Below are positions 4,041 to 63,407 of a stretch of 64,000 nucleotides of DNA, one piece after another. The stretch's first letter is position 1; every line of letters begins with the position of its first letter. Origin of the DNA: Raillietiella orientalis (taxonomy: Eukaryota); the NCBI GenBank assembly GCA_036172245.1, contig JAYWIR010000076.1, forward strand, positions 186,001-250,000, written 5' to 3'. The notes under the pieces are model-generated. The model saw only the letters and a list, made by a program, of their open reading frames with translations, did not search any database and was not told the origin of the DNA. The position numbers and the translations under genes are program-made.

Positions 4041-4245
4041 TTTATTACCCGGTTGCGCCGGGACATTTTTTAACAAAATCAAATCATCTGGGAACTAAGT
4101 TCCCAGGTAAGGGAAAGAGAAGATGGGGAGGAGGGTTCCCGACACGCAGGCCGGGCACACAGAGAGTTCGAAACGGGTGGGAGGGAACAATAAATAAATA
4201 AATAGGAAGGGAGGGCGGGAATAGGGGTCTGCAGATTCGCCGTTC

Positions 4246-12110: not shown

Positions 12111-12638
12111 AGGAACGTTTACTACCAAAAATCCCTGACCCCACTCTTCACTGTTTTTTTGTTTGTTCTCTTATGTTTTGTTTATTTTGTATCCTTCTCC
12201 CTCCGTTCCTTTCTTTTGGGAGGCAACCTGCGTGCCGGTGATCTTTCTGAACTGAACTTTCTGTATGGGCGTTCCTTGTGTCTTGAAAAGATGAATTTGC
12301 CTTGAAGATTGTATTCGTTTTTACAAATAAACGTTCCGACGCAACCGGGTTCGATACGCATCAGCGAGGAAAGGCTTAGCACCAGGGGGACGAGCTTTGC
12401 CGCGAAGCACTGAAAGAACTCCGCGGGCAGGCCATCCTCCCCAGGCGCCTTACGCCTCTTCAGGCCCGGTATGGTGTAAGATACTTCTTCCGCCGTGAAG
12501 AGCAAATCCAATGTGACGCGTTCCTCCTCGTCGATAGCAGGGTTACCCGTCGGCAGAAGCAGCTTTAAGAGACTTGGTTCCGTCGGATTCCTAGCATACA
12601 ACGAGTAGTAGAAGCGCCTTCGGAGGCGGCAACGGCGG

Positions 12639-15600: not shown

Positions 15601-17351
15601 ATCGTTCCTACATTACTACTGCTTTTTGAAAATACGGCGTGGGCCGGACGGTCGGACTGGATCCGCTTAGGGATGTTCACAGGCAGGTGCTCCGAGTACC
15701 TTGGCGTTCCGTAGGGGGAGTTCTGCGCTGCAGAAGCCTGGTCCGACCGTGTCCAAAAGGTGGAGTTGGCGATCGGCCAGTTCCGGAACGGCAAGTTTTA
15801 CTTGCAATAGCGGGCCACGGTGTGGAACGCGTTGGCGGCTTCCCTCCTTCGCTCCTTTCATTTTGTTTGCCCCGCCCCTCCCATCATACAGAGACGGATC
15901 AAAGCCCTCTTGTGGACTGCCCTTTGGGGCACAGCAAAGTCGCGTGTCCGACTGAAAGACTTCTGCGCTCCACGCAGGAATGGTGGCTTGGGCCTCCTTA
16001 CGTTATAGCGCATCCAACTACAAACAACACTTCGAGAGTTGGCCCTTGCGGCGAGATTATGGATGACGCCATGGTGCGATCCGGCAGGGCTCCTCGTCGG
16101 AAGAGCGACAGGCAGAGAAGGATTGTCCTCGATCCTCGTGGCCTACCAGCGAAGCCTCTCCAACTGTGGCACCCATTTGCGCCAGATGGTCGCCCTGATG
16201 AGGGAGAATACCTGGATCTTCTGCTTCCTTGCGAACTGCACTGCCTGGCTTCAGGAGTCAGCCTCCGCGTGGGCCAAGATCAACGGCACGTGCGAGGCGG
16301 AATACAACTGCCTACGACGAAGACCGTACGCTCGAAAGCCGCTGCAGGAGATTATCAACACGCCGCGGAAGTTTCTGTGAGCTGCTTTTAGCCCCCTTGC
16401 CCCCGTTCTGTCCTCCCTTAAAAACACTAGGAGCAGAAACGAGCGAGCATCGTGGGAAGTGTCCTGCCTTATCCGAGGCAGGAAAAAACTTTTAAAGGCG
16501 TGGACGACGCGAGAGCTCACGGACGCTGCCACCCCGAGCGTCCCGCCTCACGGACTTGCGCGCTGAGGAGTGCTGCTCGGAATACCTCCGGAAGAGGTGA
16601 AGTGGTCCCCATCGTGTTGGGATTGCGGCACACTTCCGTTGAAGTGGCAGGAAACTGCATTGCTATTTCTGCACTGGGGACTGTTAAGCAGAGCACGCCT
16701 GTGTCACTGGACACTGGGGAATGTGGATGCCCGCTGTGTCGAGTGAGGTCAAAGAGAAACCTTACCGCATCTCACCCTTGTGTGTGTCGCTCTGGAAATA
16801 CTCTGGAGTCGAATCGCCCCAATCCTCCATCTGCCAGTTAACGATCCTAAGGAAACTTACTGTCGCCTCTTTCTGCGTGACGGCCTGCGTTCCGCTGCGT
16901 CTGTAGCAGTACTCTGCTGCGTGCGCGGCATTGTGCAAAGGTGGCACGCCTGAAAAAGAGGCTCAAGATGCTGGGACGCCATCCACTGGACGACGAGCTC
17001 TTTGGAGACGGCGTCAAGGTGGCGTCTACCTTTCACAATAAAAACCGAACTTGACTGCATCCTCAACAGGATGCGGAGGACCGGACCAGGTGCACAGTGA
17101 CCCCTACTTTACCTCTCACCTCCCTATAGAAGAGTTGATCCTCTCCGTTCTTTCCTTTTTTTTTTTTGTTCTCCTTTTCTCCATCCCCAGCCCTTGTGGA
17201 GAGAACCTCGCCGGTCTATGGACCGAGTAGCGAGTACATTGTAGCGTGGGAGAACGCAGTGTTCCCCCACAGAAAACATATTTTAAAGACTTTATTATTT
17301 AATTTTTGTAACAAATTAGAATAATAAATGATTCGGCATATCCAGTTGAGA
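12639..17351 (+). mobile_element. Element B: ORF1 at 12722-13648 and 3' ORF2 at 14381-17100; interior replaced by inverted E1
   Basis: Imperfect TSD AACGGCGG (12631-12638) / AACGTCGG (17352-17359). ORF1 has GYNPALLYKVGNL and CGNCKTFGHLKKQC; RT has YAYD. Confidence 0.8.
13649..14380 (-). mobile_element. Family E 5' end/ORF1 fragment (E1)
   Basis: GCKPSLVYQVGNLFD...LPHKLEV; 5' motif GCGGACGTGTTT at 14377-14366; closely similar to 54748-55480. Confidence 0.85.
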
Positions 17352-19850
17352 AACGTCGGCCGCTCCCGAGTATTCCAGGCCCTGGCCGTCGAGTAGACAA
17401 GCCGCTCCTGACTGCCAGAACTGGCGCTCGGCCTTGGCTTTGTACTCCGCAAGGTATCGGACGTCCGGGCATTAGGAGAATCGTCTGGCCTGCAGAAACT
17501 CTCTGTTGTTGTCCACTCCTGTCCACAAGCCACGGAAAAGCAGGCGCAAAAGGAAACGGCAGCAGAACTCGCGGACCGATCTTTTCAGATCGTCCCAGTC
17601 CACGAGCGAGAGCGAACGGGTTTTTGTTTCGCTCTTTAGCGTGTGTGGTTTTATTTTATTTTTTTTTTCTTGGTGTGCCAGTGGATTCGGTGTTGGCTAG
17701 GCAGCAATGCCTGGCACCACCACCAATGTGGAAGAGGGGGCGACGTCTATGTCGCCTCCCGAATCAATGGATGTGGGGGCAACCGCTTCCACAGAAGCGA
17801 CTCCCTCGCTAGGGAGAAGCTGTAGTTCCGTGGCTGCTTTGCCAACGCAAGCGGCTGCGGCTGAATTGAAAGCCTACCTGGAAAAGGGGTACAATCCCCC
17901 TCTACTCTACAAGGAAGCTAACCTTTACTCCTTTGAGTGTACACGCGCTTTCTCGAAAGCGATGCACTCCCTCAAAGTACCCCAAGAGGAGCTCTTGGCG
18001 ATGACCATCAAAAGTGGTGGACAGTACGCTGAGGTGATTTGCAGAGAAGCAAGTCTTTCCCAGCGTCTGATTCGTACATTTGTTTCTTTGGGGAATCGCC
18101 GGCTCCTCCCCATCACGGAGGATAGATCTATCGTGATCCACCTCCTCGGAATCACCTTCCGGATGGCCGAAGAGGTTGTCCGAAAGGATTTAATTAAATT
18201 CGAAATTGTCCACGCGTTGTGGAAAAAGCCGACTTTGTTTTGAGAGTACGGTCTCCTGAATCCCGGTATGAATTCCGCGCGCATTACGTTCCTCGAGGGT
18301 TGCTCCATACCAAACAAGCTGGAGGTCAACGGCGAATCCGTTGACATCTGGTATGTTGGTAAGCCGCATTTCTGCGGGCATTGCAGCACTTCACGTCACC
18401 TGAAAAAAAGGTGCCCCCACTTGCAGTGCAACCAATGCAAGCAACCCGGGCACACTCTTCCAGTGTGCCCTCCAAATGAAGTCCGCTTCGCGTCCGCACG
18501 GAATGCGAAGAAGCGCGCGGCGAGAAAACGAAGAGTTCAGGCAGCCCTAAAGAGAGCCGCCGACAGAAACGCAACTATCTTGAACCAGGTGAAGGTCAGC
18601 TCCGAGATCTTGGAAAACTCGGACAAGGTCGAGGAGAACGGCCAGGAACCTGGATGGCAGGAAGTAGAATCCAAGAGGCAGAAAAGACTCAAGAAACCAA
18701 AGAAAATGTCGCAAACCTCAACCAAAAATTGCCGCGCCGCGAAAACATCAAACGCTGCTCTGTCGTCATCAAGTGCATTCCTGCGGTCCAAGAGAGCGTC
18801 AAAATTGCACTCGTGGCTGCCGACTCTCAGCCCTCCGGCAAATGAGTGACGGAGGCTATTTACCCGACGGTGGCGTCCGTCGTCGAACGCATGCTCGACG
18901 ACGGCGCCTTTGAGCGATGGGGGAAGGAGCTCGCTGCGTCCTTGCTGCGTCCCCTTAAATCCGCGAAAAAGGCCTTAAGGCGTCCGACCTCGATCAAGAA
19001 GTCGGAGATTCCGAACTCTGACGCAAAGGCGGAAAACACAGCCTGCGGCATCGCGCCCTCCCGCCCGAAGGCCAATCGCACGAAGAAGGCTACCCGCAAA
19101 ATTATCCCGTCCATGGAAAAGGGAGAGTTAATTGGAAGAAGAGAGCGTGCGAATTAAGTGGGGAACTCCGGGGACTCTCCTCGAGAGGTAACCTCACGCT
19201 GCGACCCTGGAGGGAGGGAAAGGGTAGAGTCTGTGCCCCAGTTGCTTCAAGTGCCTGAGATGGCCGCGGCGCCCTTAATTGCCCCTCCAACCTGTCCCTT
19301 GACAAGTGCTGCAACGCCACGTTCCCAGCCTTAATGCCGGGAATCGCCTCTTGCTGCCGTCTGCGAATTGCCTGTTGGAACGTCAACGGGCTAAGCGACG
19401 ACGGCAATAGACGAGACGTGGCCTACACCCTGGCGTCGTTCGACCTGGTGCTGCTGCAAGAGATCCACGTGATCTCCGCAGATGAAGCAACGGAGATTTC
19501 TCACCCGGTCATGCCGGGGCGTTTATTCCATATAACATAACGAAAAAAAGCAATTATACAAAATAAACCAGTTGGGAACCAAACTCCCAACCGACGACTG
19601 AACAAGAATGAAGAGAACATTGCTGACACGCAGGCCAGAGTAACAGTTTCTTGAACGGTGTGGGGGGGCGGGAAACACAAAGAAACCAAACTAAAATAAA
19701 AACAATGAATAAGGAGGACGGGATAAGAGTCTTTGGGATCGCTCTGGAAGACACGGGGATAAAAGCATGGGCACCGGAAATTTCACCGAGCGAACGGGGA
19801 CGAAGTATGGGTGAGCGAGAGGTCCCAGGGGTCACCGGATTACGCCGTTC

Positions 19851-22800
19851 TCAAAGGTCTGTAAACCGGCGATGTATGCCGGTGATGTCCTCATTCACCT
19901 TGTCACGAAGATGAGACCACCTTGAAGCCTTCTCCATGAATTGAGATGCAAGCAGGTGAGCCTCCCTTCGCTGCGATGACAACTCCAGGGCGTAGCGGGC
20001 CTTCACGATGGCGCGAACGCAACACATGGTTGCGACAATCGCGCCAACCGAAAGTCCATTTCTGCTGAAGAAGCGCCGCAGCACATCAATGGCAGTGCCT
20101 CCTTGTGGCATGATGGCCGAAGTGAGCCTTCGCCACAGTTCCCGGAGGTCACCGCAGTCCAGCAAAAGGTGCGAAAAAGACTCGATCTCTCCGCACCTTA
20201 AACAGTTTGGCAAAGCAGCTCCCCCGGAAAAGATGCTTCGCTGCCTATTACAGTGAAATGCACAATGTAAAAAGAGCAGCACATCTTGTTTCCACTTAAG
20301 GGGGAACACGGAGCTGTCCAAACAAACGGGGGGAACCACTATCTCTCCGGGGGGCACACTTAAATGTTCGCTCCACCGAAGCAGTCCCTTCGCCCGATTC
20401 CGAGGTGTGGCGGCTTGCACCAGCTCCTTCGTCGTCCAGCTGCCGAGGAGCTTACTGACTCAACCTATTTTGCAGGAGAACTCCCATTCCGCCGGTAGGC
20501 AACCGTCGTTGCTTGCCCTGAGGGCAGACAGCGCTGCGGCGAGTGGTGTGGCGGCCAGACGATCCGACAACTTCTTGTCCTGCATGACTTCGTCCATTTG
20601 ATGACTGAGGAGAAGTCGCAGGCGTCGAAGATCTTCCGGGCGCGTTCCTTCGGAAGCTGCCCACGATGAAAAAGATTCCTGCCGTCATGCATTAATGTTC
20701 ATGGGGCGGCAGGAGATCCAGCTTTGGGCTTCCAGCAGTGAGGACAGCTGCCTCAGCGGGAAGCCAAACCCTATTCTGGTGTGCCGATAGTGGGGTAGCA
20801 ACGAAAGCAGTCCCTCGCTTCCCGTGCAGCGCCTCAGTATAAGGCGTGCGGGTAAGCACCACGGCGTACACCACAGCTTGGCACAGAGCCGCAGCATGCG
20901 AAACTGCACCTGCAGTTCGATGCTGTTTAAGTCGAGGATGCCCAAGCCTGCATCCCGACGCGGCGCCACCAAGTCTTTAAGTCTAACACGGGATCTTGCA
21001 GCGCCCCACAACGCTTTGCGTAGAAGGCGCTGCGCCCAGACTTTGACTTCCTGGGGGGGTGGAGAAACAAAAAACAGGGGGCGGAGGAGGGGGACAACGA
21101 AGGTGTTCCAGATGCAGGCCCGTTCCGGCAAGACGAACTCGCCTCCTGAAAACGGGCCAAGTGCACGCTCTGCCTTCCGAAGGCAGTCCGACCACGCTTC
21201 TGAGATGCAGAAGTCGCCCAACGGCACGTCAAGGTACCTGAGGTACCTGCCCGTGAAGATCCCCAGGTCGATCCAGTCGGACTGCCCCTCCCACGTCGCA
21301 CCCACTGGAACAACCATACACTTACTCCTGTTACCGCTCACGCCTGCACCGGGACGAATCAACTCAAAGAAGTCTTCAAGCGATGTCGCCCGGGTGGACA
21401 TGGGCAACAGAAGAAGCAGGTCGTCGGCATAGGCTGCCACGGCAGGCGTACCTAGACAGGAGCTCGGCAGGTTGGCTAGCGTCAGCCTGTAAGCCTCCAG
21501 CACAAATTCAAAATAGATGCTGAAGAGCAGCGGGCTTAAGCTGGCACCCTGCCTAATTCCTCGTCGTACCGGCACGCCGTACACGCGACAGCCACTGAAA
21601 ACAATGGATGTAATCGCGTGGCGCCAGTAGGAGCGCAAGTACGCCAACACGGATGCCGGAAGACCCAGACGTTCCAAAAGCTCAAGAAGAAGCTTTTGGT
21701 TCACGCAATCGAAAGCTTTGTGCAGATCGACTGCAACCGCCAAGGCTCCCGGTGTCTCCCTTTGCGTCCGGCGCCTCCGTCGGTGAGAGATCGAAGGCGT
21801 CGCTTCCGCACGACGATCCACCGCCACACGATGCTGCAATTGCAGCCATGTGCGGATGAACAAGAGATTCGCGTCCATGGACCGCCCAGGAACAGCGTAC
21901 GTCTGCTCCGGACTTACCAAGGATTCCGCGATCCTACCCATCCGCGCCACCCAAAGTTTCGAGAACAGCTTGACGTCCGAATTCACTAATGTGATTGGAC
22001 GCCAGTTGTTCAGTTGGCACAAATCTCCGCCTTTCGGCAGTAGACGCACCTTCGCTGAGCGAAACGAAGCGGGGACATCGCCCGAGTCTCGCATCAGCGA
22101 CGAGAGTTGGAGCACCAGGAAGATGAGCTCCGCCGCAAAACACTGAAAGAATTTCGCGGAAAGCCCATCTTCGCCTGGCGCTTTTCGTCTCTTGAGCCCC
22201 GAGATGGCCGAGGAAATTTCCTCTGCCGTGAAGGGCTCATCAAGACGCGCGCGTTCCTCCTCGTCTACAACAGGTGCATCAATCGGCAGAAGCAGCCGGG
22301 AGAGGCTGCGTTCCGTCGGTGCCTCTGCATACAGAGAAGAGTAATAGCGCCTGACTATCCGTCGCACGTCGGCTGGAGCCGAGCATTCCCGGTCCTGGTC
22401 GTCGAGCAGAACTGTCGCCCCTGACTGCCAGACCTGGCGCTCGGCCTTGGCCTTGTACTCGGATAATCGACCAACGTCCGCGCACCTGGAAAAGGAGCGG
22501 GCCTGCAGAAAATCTCTGCTGTTGGCTACGCCCTCTCCGAAGCCGCGCGGAAGCTGGTGCAAGGGAAACCGGCAGCAGAACTCGCGGACCGATCTTTTCA
22601 GATCGTCCCAGTCCTCGAGCTCACTTATGGCAAAGCCGAGGAGGTACTGGCGAAGATGCTCAGCCGCCTCCGGGTGGCTTAGCCAGTCTGCCGGCATCCT
22701 CTAAAAACAGTTTGGAGGCCCCTTGCCTGGCGGGAGCAACTCAAACTCGAGCCTGTTGTGGTCTGAAAGCACGGACGGCACGGGACCTCTCCGACCCACT

Positions 22801-23423
22801 CGACAGAGCAAGTGTTCATCAAGGTATACGTGGTCCGGCGTTGCTGCCATAACAGGGTCGCTAGCGAACAAGTTGCACGTGTGCACGGACGCGCACATCT
22901 CTTCCGCTAGCAACTTTTCCCTTTCGTGGGATCTATTCTCGGAAAGCAGGTGGACGTTAAAGTCCCCCGCAATGAGATGGGCCACAGTAGGGCGGGATCG
23001 AGTGAGCCACTGGCTTTGAAGGGTACCGAAGAACTCAATCCTTTCGGCCCATCGTCCAGCACCGCTCGGCGCGTACACGTTGGTTACGACAAGGTCGATC
23101 GAGTCGGACCACTTGAGTACAAGCTGTCCCACTCGGCCTTCCGTGTCGAAACGAACGCTGCGCACCATTCCCGCCAAAGTTCCTCGCACGAGGGAAGCGA
23201 CGCCGCACGTACGTGCAACGCCGCACCTATAAAGTAGCGTTCCGCCCGCGCGCCGTTCGATTTCGGCAGCCTGCTCTCCGGAGATGCTCTGAATCTCCTG
23301 CAGGAGCGTCAAGTCGAAGGCGCGCAGAGCGTCAGCCACTAGTCGCCTCTTCTCCTCGTGTTGGAGCCCGTTGACGTTCCAAGACGTTACGGCAACACGA
23401 CGAGAAGACGCGATTGCCCCCAT
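19851..23423 (-). pseudogene. D1 ORF2 (endonuclease-RT-Cys motif), with a stop at 22701-22703 and frameshifts after ~20690
   Basis: SWNVNGL, LQEI, AGDFNV, SDHN; 670-aa RT segment with YADD; CLRCGEIESFSHLLLDC. Confidence 0.93.
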
Positions 23424-25327
23424 CACGGCTGGGAAAGCGAGGCCGTGGTGCTCGCCTCACCCGGCGAGCGGGCAGTAAGCAGCACGACGGGCTGGAGGGC
23501 GCGGTCGCCACCGGCCTCAACTGTGCTGCACGTAATCGGGTGCTCCTCCCCGGGTGCAGAACCTGTGGGTTTTGAAGTAAGCACTCGCCGTTCCGCGACG
23601 AGTATGTCACGCCTCAGGGCTTCAGCCCTGCGGGCGCTCGCTCCCGCGCGAGTTACGCGTCGTTCAGCTGCGTTATCGGACTTTTTTGCGGAGTCTGATG
23701 CTCGCACGATCGACGTGCGCTTGCATCCGTCCGATTGCACCGGAATGGTCTTCTCGGCGGTCACAGAAGCGGACTTGCACACGTTGAAGGCGCTGGCTTT
23801 TTCCTTGGAAGAGTCACAAGCCCCGCGTGTTTTCGTATTCCCGCGACTGCTTTTTCCTTTGGAAGAGCTCAGGGATGGAGGTTGCGTAGCTTTTTTTGGA
23901 GATTTTTCTTTCCTCCTCTCCACAACCTTCCATTCGCCTTCCCGATTTTCGGAGGCTTCCGCGACAGTAGTTGCGGAAACCTCCGGGATTTTCGCTGCGT
24001 TCTCTGGGGGCGTTGCTTTCGCTACGCCTTTAAAAAACGGCAACGGAGTCACCTTCTTGACAGTCGGGAGATTGCTCCTCTCGTGCCGAGTCGGCGATGG
24101 GGCGACTGCATGCAGCGTGCTTTTGCTCGTCGCGACGCTGCTTTTTACTGCTTTCGTAGCCTTTGCAGTGGGGCCTGCACTGCAGTGGGGCTGTCCGGAA
24201 CTCCGAAGGGACAACGGAACGGGGCAAGAAGTCTTCGCACTGTTGCGATTTTCCTGTTTTCCTACCTTTCCCTCCAGGGTGTTACGGAGATTTCCTGGTT
24301 CCAGGCTCGGAAAGGTGCCTGCGAGTTCGGCAGAGAGGGAAGGCACGGCACGCGTCAAACCCTCGCGCCCCTTTTTAATTGGCTTCCCCGCCGTGACTTT
24401 CCCCTTTCGGGGCGTTGCGGGCGGGGATGCTTTCTTTTTATCCGCCGATCGCTCGTGGTTTTTTTCGAGTTTTTGCGGACGACGTTTTTTATTTGCCGCT
24501 GCGGCTTTTCGTGCAGTGGTCTCTTGAACCCGACGAATTTCCGCTGCGGCTCTTTTTCTTGCAAGTACCGGGCACTTCTTGATTTCGTGCCCGGAATCTT
24601 TGCAATAGCGGCATCTTGGAGAGGGGCACTCTTTAATTCGGTGCCCATCCTTGCCGCACTGCTCGCACGCGCGACTCTGGCCTATGAACCACAGGTGAAC
24701 GACCGTGCCGTTCACCTGCAGCTGCTCAGGCACAACACGCCTGTTCGCGACGGTGATCCTCGCGGAGGCTTGTCCACTGTGGACAGAGGGGAAATCCTTT
24801 AGAGGATTTGGCCTCCTCCACAGAGCGTGCACGGTGGCGAACTTCGCCAGCACACTTACGACATCGCGGTCGGAGATTTCCGGTTCGATGTCGCACAATT
24901 GAACGACAAAAGAGTCGTCCATCGCGGTAGGTAGGACTTCCTTGCCATTGATGGTCAACGGCGTACGGAGAAGGCGCTGCACAAGTGCTGCGTTCTTGCA
25001 CCGAATCTTCGTATAATCCATCCTGCCAGCAGGCATTATGGCAAGGAGTTCCTCCTCGCGAACGCCTATCCGGACGAGCTCATCATTGAGCTCACGACCG
25101 ATTCTCCCGTTAAGTGGCCCACTGACCTTATAACGGAGTGCAGGCATGTATCCTGATGACACATATGCCTGGAACTCCGCATCGCAGGGTCCGGGTCTTT
25201 GGGAGGTAACGACGGCGTAACTCCTCACCGGGGGCGAGGAAACCATTACGGAGGATGCGGCCACTTCAAGTGCAGCTGAAGTGCATCCAGTGGCTTGCTC
25301 CTCCACACTATCCTGTGTACTGGCCAT
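23423..25327 (-). CDS. D1 ORF1, 634 aa gag-like nucleic-acid-binding protein with two CCHC knuckles
   Basis: Open from ATG to TGA; CEQCGKDGHRIKEC and CRYCKDSGHEIKKC; the TGA overlaps the ORF2 ATG. Confidence 0.88.
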   Translation of the reverse strand: MASTQDSVEEQATGCTSAALEVAASSVMVSSPPVRSYAVVTSQRPGPCDAEFQAYVSSGYMPALRYKVSGPLNGRIGRELNDELVRIGVREEELLAIMPAGRMDYTKIRCKNAALVQRLLRTPLTINGKEVLPTAMDDSFVVQLCDIEPEISDRDVVSVLAKFATVHALWRRPNPLKDFPSVHSGQASARITVANRRVVPEQLQVNGTVVHLWFIGQSRACEQCGKDGHRIKECPSPRCRYCKDSGHEIKKCPVLARKRAAAEIRRVQETTARKAAAANKKRRPQKLEKNHERSADKKKASPPATPRKGKVTAGKPIKKGREGLTRAVPSLSAELAGTFPSLEPGNLRNTLEGKVGKQENRNSAKTSCPVPLSLRSSGQPHCSAGPTAKATKAVKSSVATSKSTLHAVAPSPTRHERSNLPTVKKVTPLPFFKGVAKATPPENAAKIPEVSATTVAEASENREGEWKVVERRKEKSPKKATQPPSLSSSKGKSSRGNTKTRGACDSSKEKASAFNVCKSASVTAEKTIPVQSDGCKRTSIVRASDSAKKSDNAAERRVTRAGASARRAEALRRDILVAERRVLTSKPTGSAPGEEHPITCSTVEAGGDRALQPVVLLTARSPGEASTTASLSQP

Positions 25328-28300
25328 GTTGCACTATGCTACTTGGCAGATTGCACAGGAACACATAAGTGCGAGCAAAAACGCAGGCACAAAGTTGCCC
25401 GATCGTTGGCGCGGATAGACGCGGAAACACGTCTGCACAGTACGAGTGCAGGAGATCGAGCGTATCTCGGGTGGAAGGCTGCTGTGGCGTTGCTGCACCG
25501 TTAAATCTTGCGGTGACGCGTTCTTGCTTCGTCCAGCTGTAGAGGCTCCGGCAAAGGGCGTGGAGTTCGATAGTGCCGGTCGCGTCATGCAGTTGAACAT
25601 CAGGTGGTCCGACTCCATCCATCCGGTCCTTACCAACGTGTACGCCTGAAGCGGCAGCGACGCGCTAAGGGCAAAGGCGCGGAGAGATTTCTTCCTTACC
25701 CTGAGGCGTGAATATCTGGACGGAGCGGGAGTGCGCAAAGCGCACCTAGTCGCAGGTGACTTTAACCTGCACCTGCGGTCAGGTGCGTCCGACACTCTTC
25801 GGAATCGCGTGAACGTGCTGTGCGCAGAGATGCACACGCGCAACTTGTTCGCGGGAGATCAGGAAATCGCCGACTGCATAGATCACGTGTTCCTTGACCA
25901 GCACCTATGCTCACGCGTGGGCAGGCGCGGCAAGTTCCCTTCGAAACTGTCGGACCGTGACCGGATCGTACTCGAGGTGCGCCCACGCGATTAGGGAACC
26001 CCGTCATCTGCGTGGCGCTTAGTAAAAAGGCTTAGAAAAAAAATTCTACTCCTACCTGTACGCGCGCTTCACTGGAACAGGATGTCTCGCGACTTCTTCT
26101 TCCGGAAGGCGCTCCGGCGATCGGGGAGGAAGATAGAAAGTCCCTCGACGAGCCTTTGACGATGGGCAAGATCATCTCGGCCATCTGAAAGCTCAAGAGG
26201 CTAAAGGCTCCAGGGGAGGACGGCCTGCCAGCGGAATTTCTTTAATGTTTCGCGGAAGAGCTCACTACTCTTGTGAAGAAACTCACCTTGCTGATCCGCG
26301 AAACGGACGACGTCCAGGCCTCGTTTCGTTAAGCAAAGGTGCGTCTCTTCCCTAAGGGAGGAGACCTTCGGACCGTGAGCAACTGGCGGACTAATACCGT
26401 GATAAACGCGGACGCCGGGTTGCAGGCGAAATTGTAGGCTGAACGCCTGCGGCGGTTAGCGGAAAGCTTCATTAGCCCGGAGCAGACATATGCTGTTCCC
26501 GGGCAGAGCATGGACGCCAACCTGTTCCTCGCCAGCACCTTTCTGGCGCTACAACAGGAAAGGGTCAGGGTATGCAACCGGACTTCCGCAATGTCCGCCG
26601 CTAGTCAACGGGACGGTTGGTGAGGGGAGGGAGCCCTCGCAGTCGCAGTCCATTTGCATAAAGCATTCGACTGTGTCGACCAGAGGATCCTGCTGGAGCT
26701 CCTGGAACGCTTGGGCTGCCCGGTATCCTTGCTGACCTACCTGCGATCCTGCTGGCGCGACGCGCTCATCCACATCTTTTTCAGTGGACACACCGTGCAC
26801 GGCGTACCGGTGCGACACGGCATACACCAGGGAGACATCCTGAGTCCCTTGCTCTTCAGTACTTACTTCGAGTTGGTACTGAGAGCGTACAGGGAAACTC
26901 TAGCGCACCTGCCGAGCGAATATTTCGATGCGCTTGCGGTGTCAGGATATGCAGACGACCTACTGCTGCTGCTCCCTATGTGCACCCCGGCATCGGCGGT
27001 CGAGGAGTTCTTCCACCTGCTAAGTCGGGGAACCGGGATAGAGGTGAACAGGGCGAAGTCGTCCGTCATGGCAAACGGTGCGGCGTCGGCAGGGCAGCCG
27101 GACTGGCTCCGTTTGGTGATTTCCACGGTACGGTATTTGAAGTACCTCGGTGTACCCAAGGATAATTATCTCCTTTGGGATGCGTGGTCCAGCTGCCTTC
27201 AAAAGAGCTCGGTAGAGCGGCTGGAGCTCCAGCTCCAGTTTCGGTTATTCGCCCTAGTGGCGAAATATTGGAGAAGGAGCTGGTGCGATCCCGCACGTCT
27301 CCTTGTCGAAAAGGCTACAGGCAATGTAGGACTGTCATCCTTCCTTGCGCTCCGTCGTCGCCGCCAAGGCGGTCACTGCGGGTTGCATCTGCAGAGAGTG
27401 GCTCACTTGATGAGGTTGAACGCAGGATGGCTCTGCTGTCGCCCCGTTAACATACCTGCATTGCTGCACGAAACGGTTCAAACGTGGGCAAGGAGCAACC
27501 AGCAACGCACTCAAGAAGGGCAGAGACAATTCCTGGCCCGTAATGACCGCCTGGCGCTCCAAGAGTTCCTGGAGAACCTCCAAAAACAAGCGTGAGCAAG
27601 AAAAACTCCCCTCACTGCAATGCTGTTTTCGCTCGGGGAACATTTAAACGGCAACACTGCTGCGCAATAGGTTGTTTATGTAAAAATCTTTTGCACGGAG
27701 AAAATGATCGTGGAATGGAAAACGGGAATTCTCTGCGATACCGCGGCCTGGAGTACCACCCCTATTGGACTTTTGCGCTGAAGAGAGCTGCTAAATGTTA
27801 CGCGGGAACAATTATGATTGCCCCTGTAGCTGATGAACACCTCCACCCTCCTCTTAAAATGGCAGGAGGCGGCGCTATTCTTGCTGAATTGGGGACTTCC
27901 ATGAAACGCTTGTCGACACCATTGGAACTAGGGAGCGGTGAACCCTAATTGTGCGAGGTGTGGAGAACGGGAGTTCCTCACTTACCTCCTTTTGGATTGA
28001 GTGGCTTTTCGGTCCCTTTGGAACCGTTTTGTCGCGGCAATCGGTATCCCCTGTAGCAACCCCAGAGACGTAGTTAGATGCCTCTTCGTTTGCGACGCCC
28101 TTCTGCCATCGGCCTCGTTAGCAGCTCTGTGCTGCTATCGCAGGATCGTCGCTGCATGGAGCGAAGCAACGGGAGGACCTCGCGATAAGTGTGCCGTCCA
28201 GTGAGCAGGAGAATTTATGTGGACGGCGACAGGATGGACCCTTCTGGAATCAAACATCCAATAACAGCTTGCCGGCATCCTGCAATGGATGTAACGGCCC

Positions 28301-28539
28301 CACAGCAGACTGTGATCCCTTCCCGTGCCTTCCAGATCTTGATTTTATATATTTCTCTTTTCTGTTTTATTTTTTGTTATGTCGTTGGCCTCTCTGCTGT
28401 CGTGGTTAACCGTAACGGAATACGATCCGGTGACCCGGCTGGCTTAATTTTGTATACCAGTGCGTGGCCGGTCCACCTGGTCAGCACCAACGTTTGTGTT
28501 ATTCGAAAGAATAAACGCACCGGCGCAACCGGGTGAAAA

Positions 28540-29343
28540 ACGAGCTCTCGAACGGCCAAGGTTCGAAGATGCTGGCGGAGGTGCTCCGCAGCCACCGGAT
28601 TTCTCAACCAGTCGGCCGGCAACCTCCAGACGTGCGTCGGAGGGCCCTTGCCAGGCGGGAGTAATTCCAACTCCAGCCTGTGGTGGTCGGAAAGCTCTGA
28701 CGGCACGGGACCTATTCGACTTACCCGACAATGCAGGTGATCGTCGGGGAACACATGGTCCGGCAAAGCACGCATCACGAGATCGTCGGCTAGCAAATTC
28801 GACGCGTGCACGGACGTGCACACGTCGTTCATTATCCGTTTCTCCTGGCGACGGTGAGACTCCTCCGATAGCGCGTGGACGTTAAATTCCCCGGCTACGA
28901 CGTGAGTTACGTCGGTGCCGGAGTTGCTTAGCCAGCGGTCGCGCAGTCTCTCGAGAAACTCCTGTTTATCGGTGCGACGCGCGGAGCCGCTCGGCGCGTA
29001 CACGTTCGTGACGACAAGGTTGATCGATTCGTACCACTTGAGAACAAGTTTGCCCACACGACCTTCCTCGTCGAGACAAACGCTCCGCAGAGCTCCCGCC
29101 ACCCTACTCCGGACAAGGAATGCGACTCCGCAGGTATTCTGGGAGTTTGACCTCCAATGAAGCGTCCCGCCTGCGCGAACTTGCAGATCGGCCGCTTGCT
29201 GCTCGGAGAGTGAGAGAATCTTCTGCAGCAGGGCCAGATTGTAGTCGCGCAAGACGTTGGCAACCAATCCCTTCTTCTCTTTGTCCTGCAGCCCGTTGAC
29301 GTTCCAAGAGGCCACTCACGCGACGGGAAGCGAGACCGCGCAT
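28540..29343 (-). pseudogene. H ORF2 endonuclease domain
   Basis: ASWNVNGL, TNVYAPSG, AGEFNV, SDHH. Confidence 0.9.
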
Positions 29344-30710: not shown

Positions 30711-30975
30711 TTCACACCCGGATGTGCCGGGGCATTTATTTCTTTGAAATAAAAATGCATGAAATGTCGTGTGGCGAACCTGAAGGTTCACCACTCCAAA
30801 ACAGCTTGCTGGTTGTTGGCTCCATGCCGGAGAGGTCTTTCCGATGCGCGGGAATGGGAAATAACAAACAAAAAGAAACAGAAAGTTTAAATGTGGGGGG
30901 GGGAACAAATGTTTTAGGGGTGGGAGGGCAGGGAAGGGATCACGTTGCGCGTGGAAAGGTTCTCTAGATCCGATT
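30711..30975 (-). mobile_element. Short 3' end of a family J element (J1) abutting H ORF1
   Basis: Minus-strand AATAAATGCCCCGGCACATCCGGG at 30740-30717; 30865-30970 resembles 31155-31255. Confidence 0.7.
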
Positions 30976-35403: not shown

Positions 35404-35595
35404 GTTAGGTTAAGATAGGATAAGGTAGGTTAAGTTAGGTAATGTTCGGTCAGGTAAGGTTAGGTTAGGGTGGCTTAAAGTAGGTTTTTAGGTTAGGTTC
35501 GGTTAACATGGATGAAGTTCGGTAGGTTAGGGTGGGTTAAGTTTGGTAAGGTTAGGTTGGGGTAGGCAAGGATAAGTTCGGTTCGGTTCGGTTCA
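35404..35595 (+). repeat. Degenerate (TTAGG)n-like pentamer tract
   Basis: GTTAG/GTAAG/GTTCG/GATAG 5-bp periodicity over ~190 bp. Confidence 0.8.
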
Positions 35596-36185
35596 GCACC
35601 GTGCCTGGCCTTTTCGGAACGGGCCGATTGCCAGCATCACCTTTTCGAGACGGACAGACCAGACTTTCCCGGCCCAGAAGTCCCCCAACGGAGAGCCAAG
35701 GTGCTTAAAGTACCCGCTTGTGGAGATCCCTAAGCTGATCCAGTCCGAACGTGCTGCCCGCGACAGGTACATAAATAATGCTCACGACTTCATATTGTTG
35801 ACCTCCAGACATGTTCCGCGGCGTAGCAACTAGAAGAAATCCTCGACCGCCGATGCCGGGGTGGACCCGGGAAGCAGGAGCAGAAGATCGTCGGCATAGG
35901 CCGACACGGCAGGCGTGCCGGGACACGAGCTCGGCAGGGTTGCCAAAGTCTCCCTGTATGCTCTCAGCACCAACTCAAAGTAGATGGTGAAGAGCAAGGG
36001 GCTGAGGCTCTCACCCTGGAGGATTTTGCGTCTAGCCGGCACCCCGTACACGTGCCGGTCACTGAAAGTGATGTTGAGCAGAGCGAAGCGCGAGCCGAAG
36101 CGCAGGTAGGCCATGAAGACGGCTGGAAATCCCACGCGTTCCAGGAGACCCAAGAAAAGATCCTGGTCGACGCTTTACGCCCGTT
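35596..36185 (-). mobile_element. RT fragment, probably the downstream part of the B-like element B'
   Basis: LQGESLSPLLFTIYFELVLRAY...SAYADDLLL. Confidence 0.8.
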
Positions 36186-41500: not shown

Positions 41501-43142
41501 ATCAGCCCGTTCTTTAACGGCAAGTTAACCTTGGAGTAACGGGCGACTATTTGGAACACCTTTGTGGCCCCCCTCCTCCGTCCCCTGTTTTTTAATTCGG
41601 ACCCCCCCTATGAGGCGAAACAGCGGGCTAAGCGCCTGCTTAGGAACGCTCTCTGGGGTCCGGCGAGATCCAGGATCCACCTTAAAGATTTGTTAGCTCC
41701 GCGTCGGGATGCTGGTTTGGGTATCCTGACAATGGAGCGAATCGGACTGCAGGTGCAGTTCCGACTGCTGGCACTGTGTGCCCAGCTATGGACATGCCCC
41801 CTGTGTGTGCCAGCGCGCATTCTCCTGCGGAGATGCGCCGGCAGCGGAGGATTTCTCTCGCTTTTGCCGGGCACTCAATACAGGAAGCGGGGTTTCGGGT
41901 TTCCATTGCGGCAGTTGACCGCACTTCTGGAAGCACACTCGTGGATCTCCTGCCGCCCAATGAACTTTGAAGCTTGCGGCAGGAGTCTGTTGAATCCTGG
42001 GCAGCGTTCAATGGGCTGCGTCCTGGAGATCTTCGCTCACTGCGCCATCTTCTTCCGCGATCTTTGGAAGATGTACTGCAGGACGAGGTGAAGTTTTCTA
42101 CCCTGGCTGCCACGCCTCTTGCCGCAGCGCTGTCTGCCTTCAGTGCAAGGACCCACAGTTGCTAACCGGCGAGGTAAGAGGTTTTCTGCACGATAGCGGG
42201 AAAAACCAAACTCCTTGGCGCCTGGAAGACGAGTGAGTTGTCGGACGCCGCCACTCCTCGTGTTACTGCAAAGGGATTCCTCCGGTGGGCAGAAGAGCTT
42301 GCTGTCACCCCCTAAGAACTTATAGTTCCTTCACAGTGTGTTGACAGTTTGCTGCTCTCCCTTGCTTGTAAGAAAGCCGTGCTGCTTTTCGTCCACTGAG
42401 GTTTTCAGTGTAACGAGCGTTGACATCGAGACTCTGGGAGACTTGCATATGCCAACTGCGTTTGGTGCGGGTCGACGGAGTCGATCCCGTACCTACTTCT
42501 GGACTGCGTTGTCCTACAAGGACTGTAGCGTTGGCTGAGAACAGCACTAATGCATCCCGTGGACACCGCAAGAGACTTGCTGCGACGATTCTCCACGCCG
42601 AGCGGGCTGTCACTAAGCGCAAGGATTGCAACCATCGGTTGCATACGCGCGATAGTTTCCTACCGCCAGGCGTTAGTAATCAACGGACAGCACCAAGAGG
42701 TAATCAGCAAAGCATCCTTCTACATGGGAGCATCCGCTAGATGGCCTCATTTGACAGAGGAGACAAAAAGGAATCTCGCCGCAATACACCGCCGGTTTAC
42801 ACACCCTCAGCAGCGGCCAACCCGGTGATCATTGCCCTACCCTCCATAAACTAATTTTGTATTTTCTTTTTACACCCGCGTCCCCATAGGCTCCGGAACA
42901 TTTTAGGTGCTCATCGTTTAAATCCCCGTGAGTACGGAGTCTAACCGAAAACCCGTTACCCTTCCCTCCAGTTTTTGATTTTTGTTTGTTTCCCCTCATT
43001 CCTCCCACGCTGCGAGCGGTTTGTTTACCAAGCCTGCGTGCCGGTAAGTTTTCCATGTTCCCTGTAGTTCTGTTCGTTATGTAAATTGTCCCTGACCAGT
43101 TGATTATTATTAATAAACGCCCCGGCGTGACCGGGTGATAAA
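38586..43142 (+). mobile_element. Element F1 (D-related): ORF1 tail plus complete but disrupted ORF2 (39240-42828) and 3' end
   Basis: The ORF1 tail GGDRPLQPVVLL matches D1; TGATG at 39238; GDFN, SDHH, YADD; 3' hairpin at 43112-43136. Left boundary approximate. Confidence 0.85.
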
Positions 43143-46300: not shown

Positions 46301-48622
46301 GGGACGGGTTGCAAACGCCTTCATCAGCCCGGAACAGACGTATGCTCTTCCGGGGCGAAGCATGGAGGCGAACCTGTTCCACGCTTCCACCTGGCTAGAG
46401 CTCCAACACGAAAGGGGCTTGATGCGCATTGGGAATTCCGGTAAGATCGTCAGTCATGCGACGGATGGTCGGATGAAGGAGGGAGCACTTGCGGTCGCTG
46501 TCGACTTGCGTAAAGCATTCGAAAGCGTCGACCAGAATCTCCTGCTGGAGCTTTTGGAACGCTTGGGCTTCCCGGCTTCATTATTGGACTATCTGCGCTC
46601 TAGCTGGCGCGATTCGCAAATCAATGTAACTTTCAGCGGGCATACTGTTCACGGCGTGCCGGTGCGACGTGGCATCCGGCAAGGAGACAGCCTGAGCCCC
46701 TTCCTCTTCAGTACGTACTTTGAGTTGGTACTGAGAGCGTACAGGGAGACTCTGGCGCACCTGCCGCATGAATGCGTCGGAACGCCTGTGGTTTCAGCAT
46801 ATGCGGACGACCTCCTGCTACTGCTCCCGATGTCCGCCCTGGCTTCGGCGGTCGAGAAGTTCTTCGACCTGCTGAATCGAGGAACCGGGCTTACGGTGAA
46901 CTGCGCGAAGTCGACTGTGATGCCAGCTGGAGCGACGTGGACAGGGCAGCAGGACTGGGTCCGTCTGGGGATCCCCACGGTGAGGTGCATCAAGTACATC
47001 GGAGTGCCGTTGTGGGACTACTCTCCTGCCGAAGCGTAGTCCAGCTGCCTCCAACAAGTCGAGACGGCGATCAGCTTGTTCCTGGAAGGCAAGTTTCACT
47101 TGCCGGTACGGGCCGCGGTTTGGAACGCCTTCGCGGCCATCATCCGCCGCCCCTTGCTTTTTGTTTGCCCCGCCCCCGTGGAATGAAATAAGCGAACGAA
47201 GGACCTCTTCCGCATAGCTCTTTGGGGCAAGGGGAGGGCCCGAATCCCTTTGAAGGACTTCTGCTCTCCGCGTCGGGAAGGCGTTCTCAGCATCCTGAAG
47301 CTGGAGCGCGTGGAAATCCAACTGCGATGGCGGACCCTCGTTATCGCAGCGAAGATGTGGAGCACCGCTTGGTGCATTCCGGCCCGCCTCCTGGCCAGGC
47401 GTGTGTCCCGCTGCGAAGGACTCGCATCGTTTCTTCTGTGCTTTGGCCGGATGATTCGAAGATGCGGTCTACTGCTCGGCCGAATGGCAACCCTGGCAAA
47501 GGAGAACTACTGGATGGTTTGTGGCCCTGCTAACTCCTCCGCTTGGCTGGAAGAGACTGCTGGCACCTAGGCCAAGCAGAACCAGAAGGGCGAAGACCGG
47601 ATGAAGTGCCTGCGAGTCGGCTTTTACGCCCGCCGAACTCTCCGTGAAATTCTTGAATTTCCACCGAGTTGCACGTGGGCGGAAGGCACACTCCTTGTTA
47701 CGGCGATGCCCTTCCTCCAAAGGGCGCTTCACGAAAGCCGGAAGCCAAGGTGGCAAGTCTGCTGCCGTATCGCAGTCAGAGAGAAGATGATGAGCGGCTG
47801 GACCATGGGAGAGTTGACAGATGCAACGACCCCTAGTCTCCATCCGCGTGGATTAAGAAGATGGGGCGAGCTGCTCGGCATTCGATTGGATGACCTGAAG
47901 TGGCCCCCGGTTCTACTTGGATCCAGGATTCTTCATCTGAAGTGGCAAGAATCGGCGCTTCTGTGGCTGCATTGGGGTCTACCCTTCAACGCGCGCCGCT
48001 TCCACTGGACGCGGGGAAGATTAAATCCTGCGTGTGCCAGGTGTGGGGAGCGGTAGTCGCTCCTCCACCTCTTAGTTGCATGCCCTGCCGTCCAGATTCT
48101 TTGGAATCGTCTTAAAACGGCCCTACGGATACGGGATGGTGGCAATGTTGGATGTGTCTTCAGTCTTGTCTTCGTGCGGGACGCCCTCAGTCCAGCCGCA
48201 GCCCTGGCAGCACTTTGCTGCATTCGTTGTATCGTGGCGGCCTGGAGTGATGCCGAAGATGAAGTCTGCATCGTGAGGGACGTCATCGAGTATGCTTTAC
48301 GCTTCCTGCAGAGAGCTACCCGATGGCCCCATCTAGGAAAACTGAAAATGGAACTAGAAGGCATCCTGCAAAGGATGGGCGCTCCCAGCGGTTTTAAGTG
48401 ATTCCTTCCCGGCCCTCCAAACTTTTTTTTGTGGTTTGTTTTTTTTTTTTATTTTACTTTTGTTTTCTCCCCCATCCCCCTCCACTGCCTAGTAGAGCCA
48501 CACCGGGCTGCGTCCCGGTGTCCCGGCAGTTCCGGTATTGCGTGGCCGTCAGTGGGGCCTTGTACCACGTTCTGTATTGACCGTCGAAATGTTTTTAATA
48601 AACGTCCCGGAGTATCCGGGTG
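43345..48622 (+). mobile_element. Element G2: 5'-truncated ORF1, ORF2 at 44817-48399 (first ~740 codons open), 3' hairpin
   Basis: VWNVNGM, LQEIH, AGDFNV, SDHR, GIRQGDSLSP, YADD, CARCGE; AATAAACGTCCCGGAGTATCCGGG at 48597-48620. Confidence 0.9.
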
Positions 48623-51165
48623 GCATTGCCGAAACCTGGAGGAAGTTGATGAAGGGGAAACTGGTCACAGAACTCTCGGACTGAGCGTTTTATTTTGTCT
48701 AAGTCAGCGAGAGTCTGCAGTTCACAACTACGCAGGAATGCGCGCAGATTTTCGCGCGTTACTGCGAGTCGCAACCAGTCCTCAGGCAGACGCCACGCTT
48801 CGGAGGGTGGACCTCTGTAGCGCGGATGAATGTTGATCACTAGCCGAGGATGATCGGACAGCTCCGACGCAATTGCCCCTCGAGTCCCCACCCGCGTACA
48901 CAAGTGGTTATCGAAGAACACGTGGTCGATTCTGCTTCTCACCCCGGCTTCATCGGCCAACAAGTTGCGTGTGTGCATAGCCGCACACAACTCGTTGACC
49001 AATTGTGCTCGTATGTCGGGCGCTTCCGACAACAGGCGGACGTTGAAGTCTCCCGCTATCGAATGCGACCGCCGCACGCCTGCTTCGGCCAGCCAGTCTC
49101 TCCGCAGGGCTTCGAAGAACGCAGTGCGTTCTGCGCGCCTGTGGCTGGTGCAGGGCGCGTACAGGTTCGTGACTACGAGGTCGATCGATTCGGACCACTT
49201 AAGGACAAGTTGTCCAAGTCGACCTTCCTCGTCGAACTGTGCACTGCGCACCGCATTGGCGACGGCTGGCTTCAGCAGGAAGGCCACTACGCGGGAGTGG
49301 TCTCCTCCACCACGCCAAAGTAGTCTTCCCTTGTGAGCCTCTCGATTTCCTGGACGTCCTCTGCTCTGAGGGCATGCACCTCTTGGAGAAGTGCCAGGTC
49401 CAAAGGTCGCAGGGTGTGGGCCACGATACGCCTCTTGCTTTCGCTACGCAGCCCGTTGACATTCCAACAGGCTATACGCAGCTGCCGGCAAGAGGCGATC
49501 CCACGCATCATACTAGTGACGGTGGTGGCGTGTGTATTGCCGCCTCCTGTTCGGGAGGCGGCTGGTCGCTGTCCATCTGCGGTGGTGGCGTTTCGGCAAC
49601 GACCGGAACATCTGCAGCCGGACTGCAGTCTATAGGGAGGACCGATCGGATGCTGTCGATAGAGGGATCCCGCGACCTCGCGGACATCGCCTCCTCGCTA
49701 TCCGAGCGCATCTCCTCCACCTCAGCCTGAGGGGGAGCGACGCGCATAGGGTTGCGCGACTTCCGGCCCGCCTTCCTCTTCGGAAGGACGACGGTGGGAG
49801 GGTTTCCGGCTTCCTCCTCGGACCCGGAAGTTTCCGGGCCCTTAACTTCCGCCGGACATCTGACGGCCTTCTTTGCAGCCTTAGGCGGCTGCATTAAGGT
49901 GGCCGCGAGTTCCTCCGCCGCCTTCGCGAAGTTTTTCTCGTCGCTGCTGCTCGCGTGTTTGTCGCAGGATTCCTGCGGCGGTTCCGCGGCGTTCGCGACG
50001 GTTGCGGGAGTCGCGTTCGCCGATCGACGCTCGATCGACGGAACGCGCTCGATTGTAACGCGGCATTCCTTTATGGATCCGCGCGGCGAAATTTTTGGTT
50101 TGCCGACCGCGGGCTTTTTCGGAACGCTCGCGTTCTGATTTTTTGAGTTTTTTGTGGGGATTTTTTTGTTTTGTTTTCAATTTGTTTGGGTTTTTTGCCG
50201 GAGACGATTTTCCAGCCTTCCTCGTCGGCATTTGGATCAGTAGTCTTTTTTTGAGGCTCCTGCTTCTTGTGCACGACTTCTTCTAAAGTTAGCTTTCCAT
50301 CGCTCTTTGCTTTAAATTCTGCCTTCTTCCCCTCGTTTGTCGAAGGGGCTGAAGGCGTTGTCGCGGCGTTTTTCGGGCACACAGCACTAGTATGGCCCTT
50401 CGCGCCGCAGGTTGGGCATGTGGCATCCGGGCATCTCTTTTTAAGATGCCCGAATGTGTTGCACAGTCCACATTATTGTTCCTTCCCCACGTACCAGAGG
50501 TCGACAAGCTCGTCGTTGACTTCAAGCTTGTGGGGAAGTTCTTTGTTTTCGCGAAGAGTTACGCGCGCGGCCACTCGCCCACTGAATGCGCCTCGATAAG
50601 TAAAGGCGTTGGGCTTTGACCACATCGCGTATATCTCCGCGAATTTGTTGATTTCAGTGCGGATGGCTTCATCGGTCATCCGCACCGTTGTACCCGTGAG
50701 GTGGATCACCATTGATTGATCCACCGTGTGTGGGAAAAGATTCCGCCATTCGAACGGAACGGGCGTGCAGAGCAGTTTGTGTGTGAGCGCCGCATCTTTG
50801 CAGATCAGCTCCGCGAACTGCCCGCCGCTCCGAATCGAGAAGCAAAGAATCTTCTCGTCAGAGATTCCCATCCTACGGATGGCGTTTCCAAATTTCCGCG
50901 TTGTAAGCGGTGAATAAAGATTTCCTACCTTGTAAAGGAGGACTGGGTTGTAGCCCTCCTTTATGTAGGCCTGCATTTCGGTGACCACTTCCGGCGGAGC
51001 CGCCGCGGCCACCTTGTTCCACGCCCTCGCCGGGGTGGCGGGGACTGATTTTCTGGTGGGGCATGACCCCACCTCCATAGGTTAGGGAGACGTGGACCTC
51101 ACGTCTCCCGTCGGAGGAACTGCGGCGTCTTCAGGCATTTCTGCCTTCCAACGGCCGCACTTCCG
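48623..51165 (-). mobile_element. B-like element B': ORF1 and endonuclease, truncated at LPPGFG by G2
   Basis: ORF1 GYNPVLLYKVGNLYSPL resembles 12722 onward; TGATG at 49510-49506; CWNVNGL, AGDFNV, SDHP. Confidence 0.85.
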
Positions 51166-51507: not shown

Positions 51508-51763
51508 GCTCGTGGACTGGGACGATCTAAAAAGATCGGTCCGCGAGTTCTGCTGCCGGTTCCCCTTGCGGCTGCTTTTCCGTGGCGTGAGGGCAGGAGT
51601 GGACAACAACAGAGAGTTTCTGCAGGCCAGACGATTCTCCCGATGCCCGGACGTCTGGCACCTTGCGGACTACAAGGCCAAGGCTGAGCGCCAGGATTGA
51701 TAGTCAGGATCGGCTTGTCTGCTCGACGACCAGGGTCTGGAGTGCTCAAGCGCGGGCGACGTT
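51508..51763 (+). mobile_element. Family H ORF2 linker fragment (H2) between C2 and B2
   Basis: LVDWDDLKRSVREFCC...ECSSAGDV; inverted match to 17352-17607. Confidence 0.85.
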
Positions 51764-63095: not shown

Positions 63096-63407
63096 CAGGA
63101 GATGGAGACGATCGCGGGTGGTCGGTTGTATTGGCGATGCGGCCTCCGCAACACCTGCGGGGTCGCGTTCTTCGTGAAGCCAGCGATAGACGCTGCCGTG
63201 AAGGGCGTGCGCTTCGATGACGACGGTCGGATCGGTCAGCTGATTCTCAGCTGGTCCGACTCGATCGACCTAATCGTCACAAACGTGTATGGCCATAGCG
63301 GCAAACAGGGGTACCGCGACCGCACCAGGCTGCTGGAAACCCTGAAACGCGACTGGCTGGCGGATACCAAAGTGCGAAAGGCTCACCTGATAGCGGAGAT
63401 TTCAATC

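Follow-up and report, generated by a model that had tools for sequence, protein, structure and literature searches.

A conserved, hairpin-shaped 3' terminus of L1/Tx1-like LINEs in Raillietiella orientalis as a candidate recognition signal

The LINE nest and the 3' end of element C

The window, by which we mean the whole analysed stretch of 64,000 nucleotides (G000:C76:186001-250000; assembly size 210 Mb), holds LINEs nested in one another, with frames that match the APE endonuclease (PF03372) and reverse transcriptase (RT; PF00078) families of Pfam. Element C lies antisense within the ORF2 of another LINE and is itself split by D1. Its terminal 30 bases (Table 1) deviate from the consensus described below by one change, which affects the outer stem pair (ACCGG/CCGGG), and base 28539 is the last of the element. 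This end is unambiguous, since the base preceding the 5' copy of the target-site duplication is C and not A. Among the eight copies of the terminus listed in a preliminary description of this DNA, D1, J1, F1 and G2 proved to be exact, while C and D2 each have one stem mismatch, A has two and H lacks the preceding AATAAA; in H, an AATAAA falls after the stem and is made of tail and target. The decayed versions said to end B and B2 were located as well. G2 appears to end at +4, as indicated by two of three duplications among copies that share its tail.

The best PDB match of the group's RT was human L1 ORF2p (E 3e-41). ORF2 frames that are open over 1170-1217 aa and have a C-terminal CxxC-H-C occur elsewhere in the genome, and a separate ORF1 of the group contains two CCHC knuckles when read by eye; the ORF1 in the window had no match in Pfam. 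A separate ORF1 bearing CCHC zinc knuckles is a Tx1-like trait. Insertions span 38 nt to 5.9 kb, as expected from 5' truncation, and are accompanied by target-site duplications. L1-type proteins and duplications are present and the 3' poly(A) tail is absent. Homologue and atlas searches returned no named close relative of the group's protein. Outside this genome one relative of ORF2 reached 70% identity (metagenome protein P0005) and the others at most 30%, for which reason we provisionally label the group L1/Tx1-like.

Several further features of the locus were recorded. The motif RGACGTGYT recurs a few bases inside the 5' end of full-length copies (6398(+), 14375(-), 25434(-), 36191(+), 54753(+), 63081(-) and 63414(+)) and resembles the downstream promoter element known from internal Pol II promoters. 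An open frame of 460 aa (1014-2396), which encodes a C2H2 zinc finger and had no match in Pfam, is similar to the N-terminus of an R2/NeSL-type element, and on the minus strand a degenerate CCTAA/CCTAAC-like repeat (35420-35600) adjoins a truncated RT piece. Members of one family stand head to tail, separated by nothing except the duplicated target, at G000:C76 129209/135150, 156133/159939 and 327961/329384.

Table 1. Positions of the 3' termini and associated features (window coordinates unless a locus is named)
Feature	Position	Strand	Details
H, 3' end	4042..4071	-	AAAAAA replaces AATAAA; exact stem; loop CGCAA; tail AATAA
A, target-site duplication	at 6375 and 12356		12 bp, ACGCATCAGCGA
A, 3' end	12326..12355	+	two stem mismatches; loop CGCAA; tail TCGAT
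B, 3' end	17323..17352	+	decayed
C, 5' copy of target-site duplication	17602..17607	+	ACGAGC
C, decayed L1/Tx1-like LINE	17608..28539	+	RT frame 26624-27595; ORF2 end near 28306
C, upstream family-variable hairpin HP1	28460..28487	+	-14.2 kcal/mol; beats 20/20 shuffles
C, predicted short helix	28499..28514	+	TTATTC-GAAA-GAATAA; would pair AATAAA with the preceding U-rich stretch
C, 3'-terminal 30-nt signal	28510..28539	+	AATAAA CGC ACCGG CGCAA CCGGG T GAAAA
C, 3' copy of target-site duplication	28540..28545	+	ACGAGC (6 bp)
D1, 3' end	19498..19527	-	exact; loop CATGA; tail GAGAA
D1, element	about 19498-25450	-	duplication ATCTCC
J1, 3' end	30711..30740	-	exact; loop CACAT; tail GTGAA
F1, 3' end	43112..43141	+	exact; loop CGTGA; tail GATAA
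G2, 3' end	48597..48625	+	exact stem; loop AGTAT; tail GGCA
B2, 3' end	51763..51792	-	strongly decayed
D2, 3' end	56768..56797	-	one stem mismatch; loop CATGA; tail GAGAA
D2, target-site duplication	5' copy at 63103		ATCTCCTG.GC
X, 3' end	61692..61729	+	AATAAA, C-run...GGGG, AAAA, then fixed target start
Insertions into sister LINEs	19498-25456, 17602-28545, 43142, 56767, 61730; L098; L103
Open ORF2, 1217 aa	L103:2626-6276	-	open frame
Open ORF2, 1203 aa	L088:1622-5230	-	open frame

Anatomy of the terminus and position of the element end

The consensus of 173 copies reads AATAAA-YGN-CCCGG-N5(6)-CCGGG-T-GNNAA, preceded by a U-rich stretch. The core of the formula given earlier was correct, but its end was not, as GNNAA adds five bases, and the loop, which was given as five bases, has this length in 155/173 copies and six bases in the remaining 18. 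The exact core occurs in 1,716 copies genome-wide and not once in the reversed sequence. With linker, stem and loop (16 bases) left free, the pattern gave 3,225 matches genome-wide compared to 87 in the reversed sequence, and by eye all except about four of the first 100 listed displayed the stem or a decayed form of it. The 264 kb of the contig contained 43 motif matches (none when reversed), and in the window the stem was matched ten times with 3.03 matches expected, a count that none of 100 shuffles reached. These numbers exclude chance. ORF2 ends that were picked independently of the motif carried it within 550 nt in 41 of 44 cases in the 264 kb, compared to 17 of 300 random windows; this is a recount without one misaligned seed, and the decayed B2 is among the three misses. 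The proposed conserved, hairpin-shaped terminus after AATAAA is thus real. An ORF2 was found at most 800 nt from 139 of the 173 copies, and 25 of the other 34 share their 3' UTR with such copies. By 3' UTR the 173 ends form 80 clusters, whose C-terminal peptides are approximately 35% identical at the median (a rough value from fragment alignment), and the motif is kept across all 80.

The description of this terminus as having almost no poly(A) was also borne out. The A-run from tail position 4 was two to three bases long in 145/173 copies and never exceeded five, while the longest A-run at most 25 nt from the stem was no longer than five bases in 171/173 and seven at the maximum. In regard to other occurrences of the motif, ten exact matches on metagenome contigs, none with similarity to LINE proteins, were read as chance. 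The histone 3' signal of the host was considered as a candidate and rejected, since all four histone loci examined have the canonical GGCCCTTTTCAGGGCC stem-loop and none has this motif after the stop; such stem-loops fit an animal host. No Rfam family matched the motif; the two miRNA matches in the window were weak and lay elsewhere. Literature searches covering mainly open-access papers yielded no paper describing this terminus.

The point at which the elements end was determined from their target-site duplications. An exact upstream repeat of at least 11 bases was present for 41 of the 173 copies (14/859 in a swapped-flank control). Five of these were offset-0 matches to neighbouring ends and were removed, leaving 36 duplications that started at +5 after the T in 19 cases, at +4 in eight, at +3 in three and at other positions in six. 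One family, whose copies partly overlap the set of 173, was studied more deeply: of its 187 pattern matches 91 were examined, 84 ended in GNNAA and 48 had a duplication (control 15/903), which in 41 of the 48 was compatible with an end exactly after GNNAA. Duplications in this family measured 10-17 bp, with a mode of 14 (22/42). The five-base end kept its length while the A-run differed (GGCAA, GTAAA and GAAAA), and two copies with 6-nt loops likewise ended at +5, so that the distance counts from the stem and not from AATAAA. The elements end five bases after the T, or four in some families, regardless of A-run or loop length.

Fifteen of the duplications began with C, G or T (ten at +5 and three at +4). 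Since poly(A) is unable to pair with such a first target base, priming does not need A:T pairing, and any of the four bases may stand first in the target. Decay of the tails would not explain the missing poly(A) either, as the duplications are often perfect. Tandem 3' repeats of the L2 type were absent, the duplication following directly after GNNAA. Copies just 38-110 nt long retained an intact end. In addition, insertions of 38-80 bases, which extend barely beyond the terminal signal and each have a duplication, were noted at L095:296-395(-), L067, L010, L028 and L182.

Terminal stem and upstream structures

The stem was invariant across family representatives while the loops differed, in agreement with the preliminary description. 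The covariation that it had named as its own check did not appear. None of the five stem pairs was changed on both sides in alignments of 32 and of 12 family representatives, and the genome-wide search returned 76 copies with double changes at a single pair (22, 7, 20, 19 and 8 by pair). The loops among these copies were mixed, so that no set of them looks like a family, and 40 of the 76 changes were complementary, with 40.1 expected under independent change (p 0.57). In the light of this lack of compensatory change among both the representatives and the genomic double changes, the stem is conserved at the level of its sequence. Pairing in the RNA is predicted from complementarity and folding, with a stem pairing probability above 0.5 in 39/57 representatives, and isolated 30-mers have only a slight folding advantage over shuffles (z -0.8 to -1.6). 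With the C before the stem the fold comprises 7 bp and one bulge. An extended lower stem with Y-G and G-U pairs around this bulge found no support across families, as those with A or T as first tail base still keep the C.

A variable hairpin lies within 70 nt 5' of AATAAA, with a mean of -9.3 kcal/mol compared to -5.7 for shuffles (p 5e-7), and is not uniquely placed, as it was no better than the next 70 nt upstream (-8.2, p 0.12). Covariation was observed for this hairpin in a hand-picked set of 12 out of 57 representatives, in which eight of ten pairs changed on both sides (0/500 shuffles). The alignment of 32 representatives yielded no consensus pairs for it, probably due to differing loop lengths. 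We regard the upstream hairpin as a more likely candidate for family-specific RNA recognition than the 5-nt loop. Furthermore, 30 of 56 representatives contain a 6-base complement of AATAAA upstream, while shuffles averaged 7.0 and 12.8 and reached 20 at most. This complement (TTTATT or TTTGTT) may hide AATAAA in a helix or may act as an antisense AATAAA, which could shorten transcripts of the LINE in which the element lands. At the base after AATAAA, G was found opposite C in 11/16 cases and opposite T in 2/14; the C/T by G/A pairing test among the representatives was not significant (p 0.14).

The distant family X, to which we assign the end at 61692-61729, has an RT 31% identical to that of the group. 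Its CCCC..GGGG end, previously called analogous, was confirmed as similar in layout and different in sequence; it is an analogue of the 30-base signal and not a homologue. This layout and a fixed target start were found in 21 copies, and the fold is weak (z 0.46). No target-site duplication was found for the X copy in the window. The family comprises at least 40 copies that are 94-98% alike, and by eye the two C-runs and two G-runs of its end could form a small pseudoknot.

Recognition, target choice and known systems

Taken together, we consider it moderately probable that the terminus is a stringent-type 3' signal of this L1/Tx1-like group, bound by ORF2p and measured from. The 30 bases would then constitute a cis-acting 3'-terminal RNA signal of one large group of LINEs. 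The RNA would fold into a 5-bp GC stem that ORF2p binds by sequence as well as shape, which may be the reason why the stem does not covary, and the bound stem would serve as a ruler, with reverse transcription beginning at a fixed distance 3' of it and without pairing of poly(A) to a T-tract. The endonuclease would pick the family-specific target, and family-specific RNA recognition would more likely come from the variable upstream hairpin or from cis preference than from the 5-nt loop. The last one or two A's may be encoded, or they may come from the start of a poly(A) tail that is added downstream of AAUAAA. Stringent 3' recognition had already been raised in the preliminary description, and a poly(A)-free, hairpin-shaped terminus is what it leads one to expect; covariation and a loop code are not in evidence. 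Several observations count against recognition by ORF2p. Pairing is deduced from complementarity and folding in a stem without covariation, the lower stem and bulge needed by L2 elements are unsupported here, and the distant X reproduces the layout with a different sequence that folds weakly. Moreover, precise 3' processing of the RNA combined with a non-selective RT would give a fixed end too, no SINE sharing the tail was recognised among the 173 copies (nine lacked a nearby LINE link and few were resolved), and one of the 48 copies in the deeply studied family (L181) may carry three extra A's. Families with different targets could mobilise each other's RNA if the stem serves all of them as a common handle.

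Target preferences bear on a second, doubtful possibility, namely that the RNA extends a few bases past GNNAA into the duplicated target of its donor and pairs with the nicked primer. The hairpin would set the register, the flank would help to pick the site and each insertion would regenerate the guide, which may add to recognition by ORF2p and not replace it. In the deeply studied family the target logo (42 sites with homologous targets retained; 6/48 with offsets outside 3-5 left out) gave ACARC in the five bases directly after the end. These hold 5.6 bits compared to 1.45 bits in the five bases before the nick, and the sole degenerate position is A/G, as an RNA G with wobble would allow. 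Each family has its own target start of 5-9 bases (ATCTCC, ATTTCAATC, TCGAA and more), and the upstream complement of AATAAA could weaken cleavage. The alignment of the endonuclease with human L1-EN stops at L1 residue 178, and 11 residues separate the equivalent of this position from the next catalytic Asp, where L1-EN has about 27; the group's endonuclease is approximately 16 residues short. The target-reading hairpin of L1-type endonucleases lies in that region (PMC1919474), and in R2Ol annealing of a read-through flank raises efficiency (PMC6530143).

On the other side of the argument, the C at -4 (29/42) lies beyond the nick, where an RNA flank could not supply it, and the L1 endonuclease likewise yields one-sided target information. 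Swaps of the endonuclease between SART1 and TRAS1 also shift target choice (PMC1919474). A combined scheme, which we again think unlikely, would have the shared invariant hairpin fix the cDNA start while about five read-through target bases pair with the primer, help to pick the next site and offset the missing endonuclease hairpin. If so, target choice would be partly RNA-inherited and reprogrammable by a few bases, and any family could mobilise one tail; a true guide would make for a compact, retargetable insertion system.

Several target sites lie antisense inside the ORF2 of sister LINEs. Antisense insertions at fixed codons of sister LINEs were noted for D (endonuclease 'QEI') and for another family (RT 'AFDCV'). 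F inserts at ATTTCAATC, and X inside a D-like ORF1.

Recognition by ORF2p has a further competitor, which we hold to be improbable, in a host processing signal. AAUAAA and the hairpin would direct the host to cut at one exact base, whether or not a tail is then added, and a non-selective RT would start there or at the junction of body and tail. AATAAA is approximately 99% conserved with a U-rich stretch 5' of it (the hexamer was part of the scan pattern), and the element end, 24 nt after AATAAA, is inside the usual cleavage range. In X, AATAAA, a C/G palindrome and a short end of A's are retained within a different sequence. A relaxed RT on polyadenylated RNA should, however, leave variable tails, and none were seen; in the two copies whose loop has 6 nt the end keeps its distance from the stem and not from the hexamer, the GC-rich flanks vary without a fixed downstream element, and the host's own histone genes use the canonical stem-loop and not this motif.

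The loop had been proposed as a family identity code, in which each ORF2p would read its own five bases on a common stem, as in ZfL2-1/ZfL2-2. The zebrafish L2 precedent (PMC4176376), the constraint to C-R-Y-R-H and the stability within families (CGCAC in 16/17 copies of family 1, CGCAA in 6/6 of the H family) speak for such a code. The distribution of the loops makes it quite improbable. CGTGA occurred in 15 of 58 clusters, CGCAC in seven and CGCAA in five, spread over the tree, and the clusters with CGTGA are unrelated and fall to either side of its deepest split; in the window A, C and H all have CGCAA. Loops were shared by 82% of pairs above 85% protein identity, by 45% at 70-85% and by a flat 6-7% below 70%, and the first of these values argues that the loop tracks recent descent. 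Much of the variation is also CpG-type decay (CGTGA/CATGA within D). The loop may nonetheless have a coarse role in specificity. Finally, the notion that CCCGG-N5-CCGGG is a DNA-level dyad, bound by a dimeric protein whose role is to terminate transcription or to mark the element, with no RNA hairpin involved, would account for invariant arms, a nearly fixed spacer and the lack of covariation, and is very improbable given the spacer of six bases in 18/173 copies, most of which gain a closing pair by it (GCGTAC, AGAAAT), a polarity and a distance to the start of the cDNA that are both fixed, and the covariation of neighbouring hairpins of the same UTR in the hand-picked set.

The nearest counterparts of a signal recognised by ORF2p are L1-type LINEs with a conserved hairpin-forming 3' end, namely the 'monocot 1a' lineage of maize and sorghum, for which this hairpin was proposed as an RT recognition signal, and L1-1_CR of Chlamydomonas (PMC3747384). 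In the monocot elements the stem is variable with compensatory changes while loop and 3' flank are conserved, the reverse of the situation here, and L1-1_CR has a poly(A) end and a SINE partner, neither of which was seen in our group. Whether stringent 3' recognition is ancestral in the L1 clade is left open in that report, and the present group bears on this question.

UnaL2, ZfL2-1 and ZfL2-2 share with the group a short 3' stem-loop, a 5-nt loop near the start of reverse transcription and a lack of poly(A). In zebrafish L2 elements recognition of the stem is general and that of the loop specific (PMC4176376), while UnaL2 requires a GGAUA loop and a bulge ahead of UGUAA repeats (PMC1636434). 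The L2 elements thus belong to another clade with terminal tandem repeats (UGUAA), a bulged stem and an element-specific loop. In contrast, our group has no terminal repeat, the bulge is unsupported, loops are common to distant families and the five-base end is fixed. On covariation, on the specificity of the loop and on terminal repeats the group does not qualify as L2-type.

Tx1, Keno, Kibi, Koshi and Tx1-Mar resemble the group in their APE-RT-CCHC ORF2, zinc-knuckle ORF1 and family-specific targets, and Tx1 elements target other repeats, some inside mobile elements (PMC4494074). The consulted sections of that study describe no such terminus for the Tx1 clade, and the SINEU elements mobilised by Tx1 have poly(A).

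R1Bm reportedly uses read-through priming. R2Ol has exact 3' junctions without poly(A), and its RNA flank may pair with the primer (PMC6530143). Both belong to other clades and target rDNA, and read-through in our group is a proposal. SART1 is stringent and yet needs poly(A) for accuracy (PMC7265360).

Conserved 3' hairpins are already well known in LINEs, which limits the surprise. The group would nevertheless represent a clean, natural animal example of L1-like elements that do without poly(A) priming. Its geometry is simple: the signal spans 30 bases, the end is fixed, the duplication measures 14 bp, and the genome contains ORF2 frames that are open. Human L1, an element of the relaxed type, shares RT kinship, duplications of approximately 14 bp, 5' truncation and an AATAAA near the end with the group, but primes its poly(A) at T-tracts and has long variable tails, neither of which was seen here (PMC5135761). 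A measured, poly(A)-free start is a known strategy of other LINE groups and unusual for relatives of L1.
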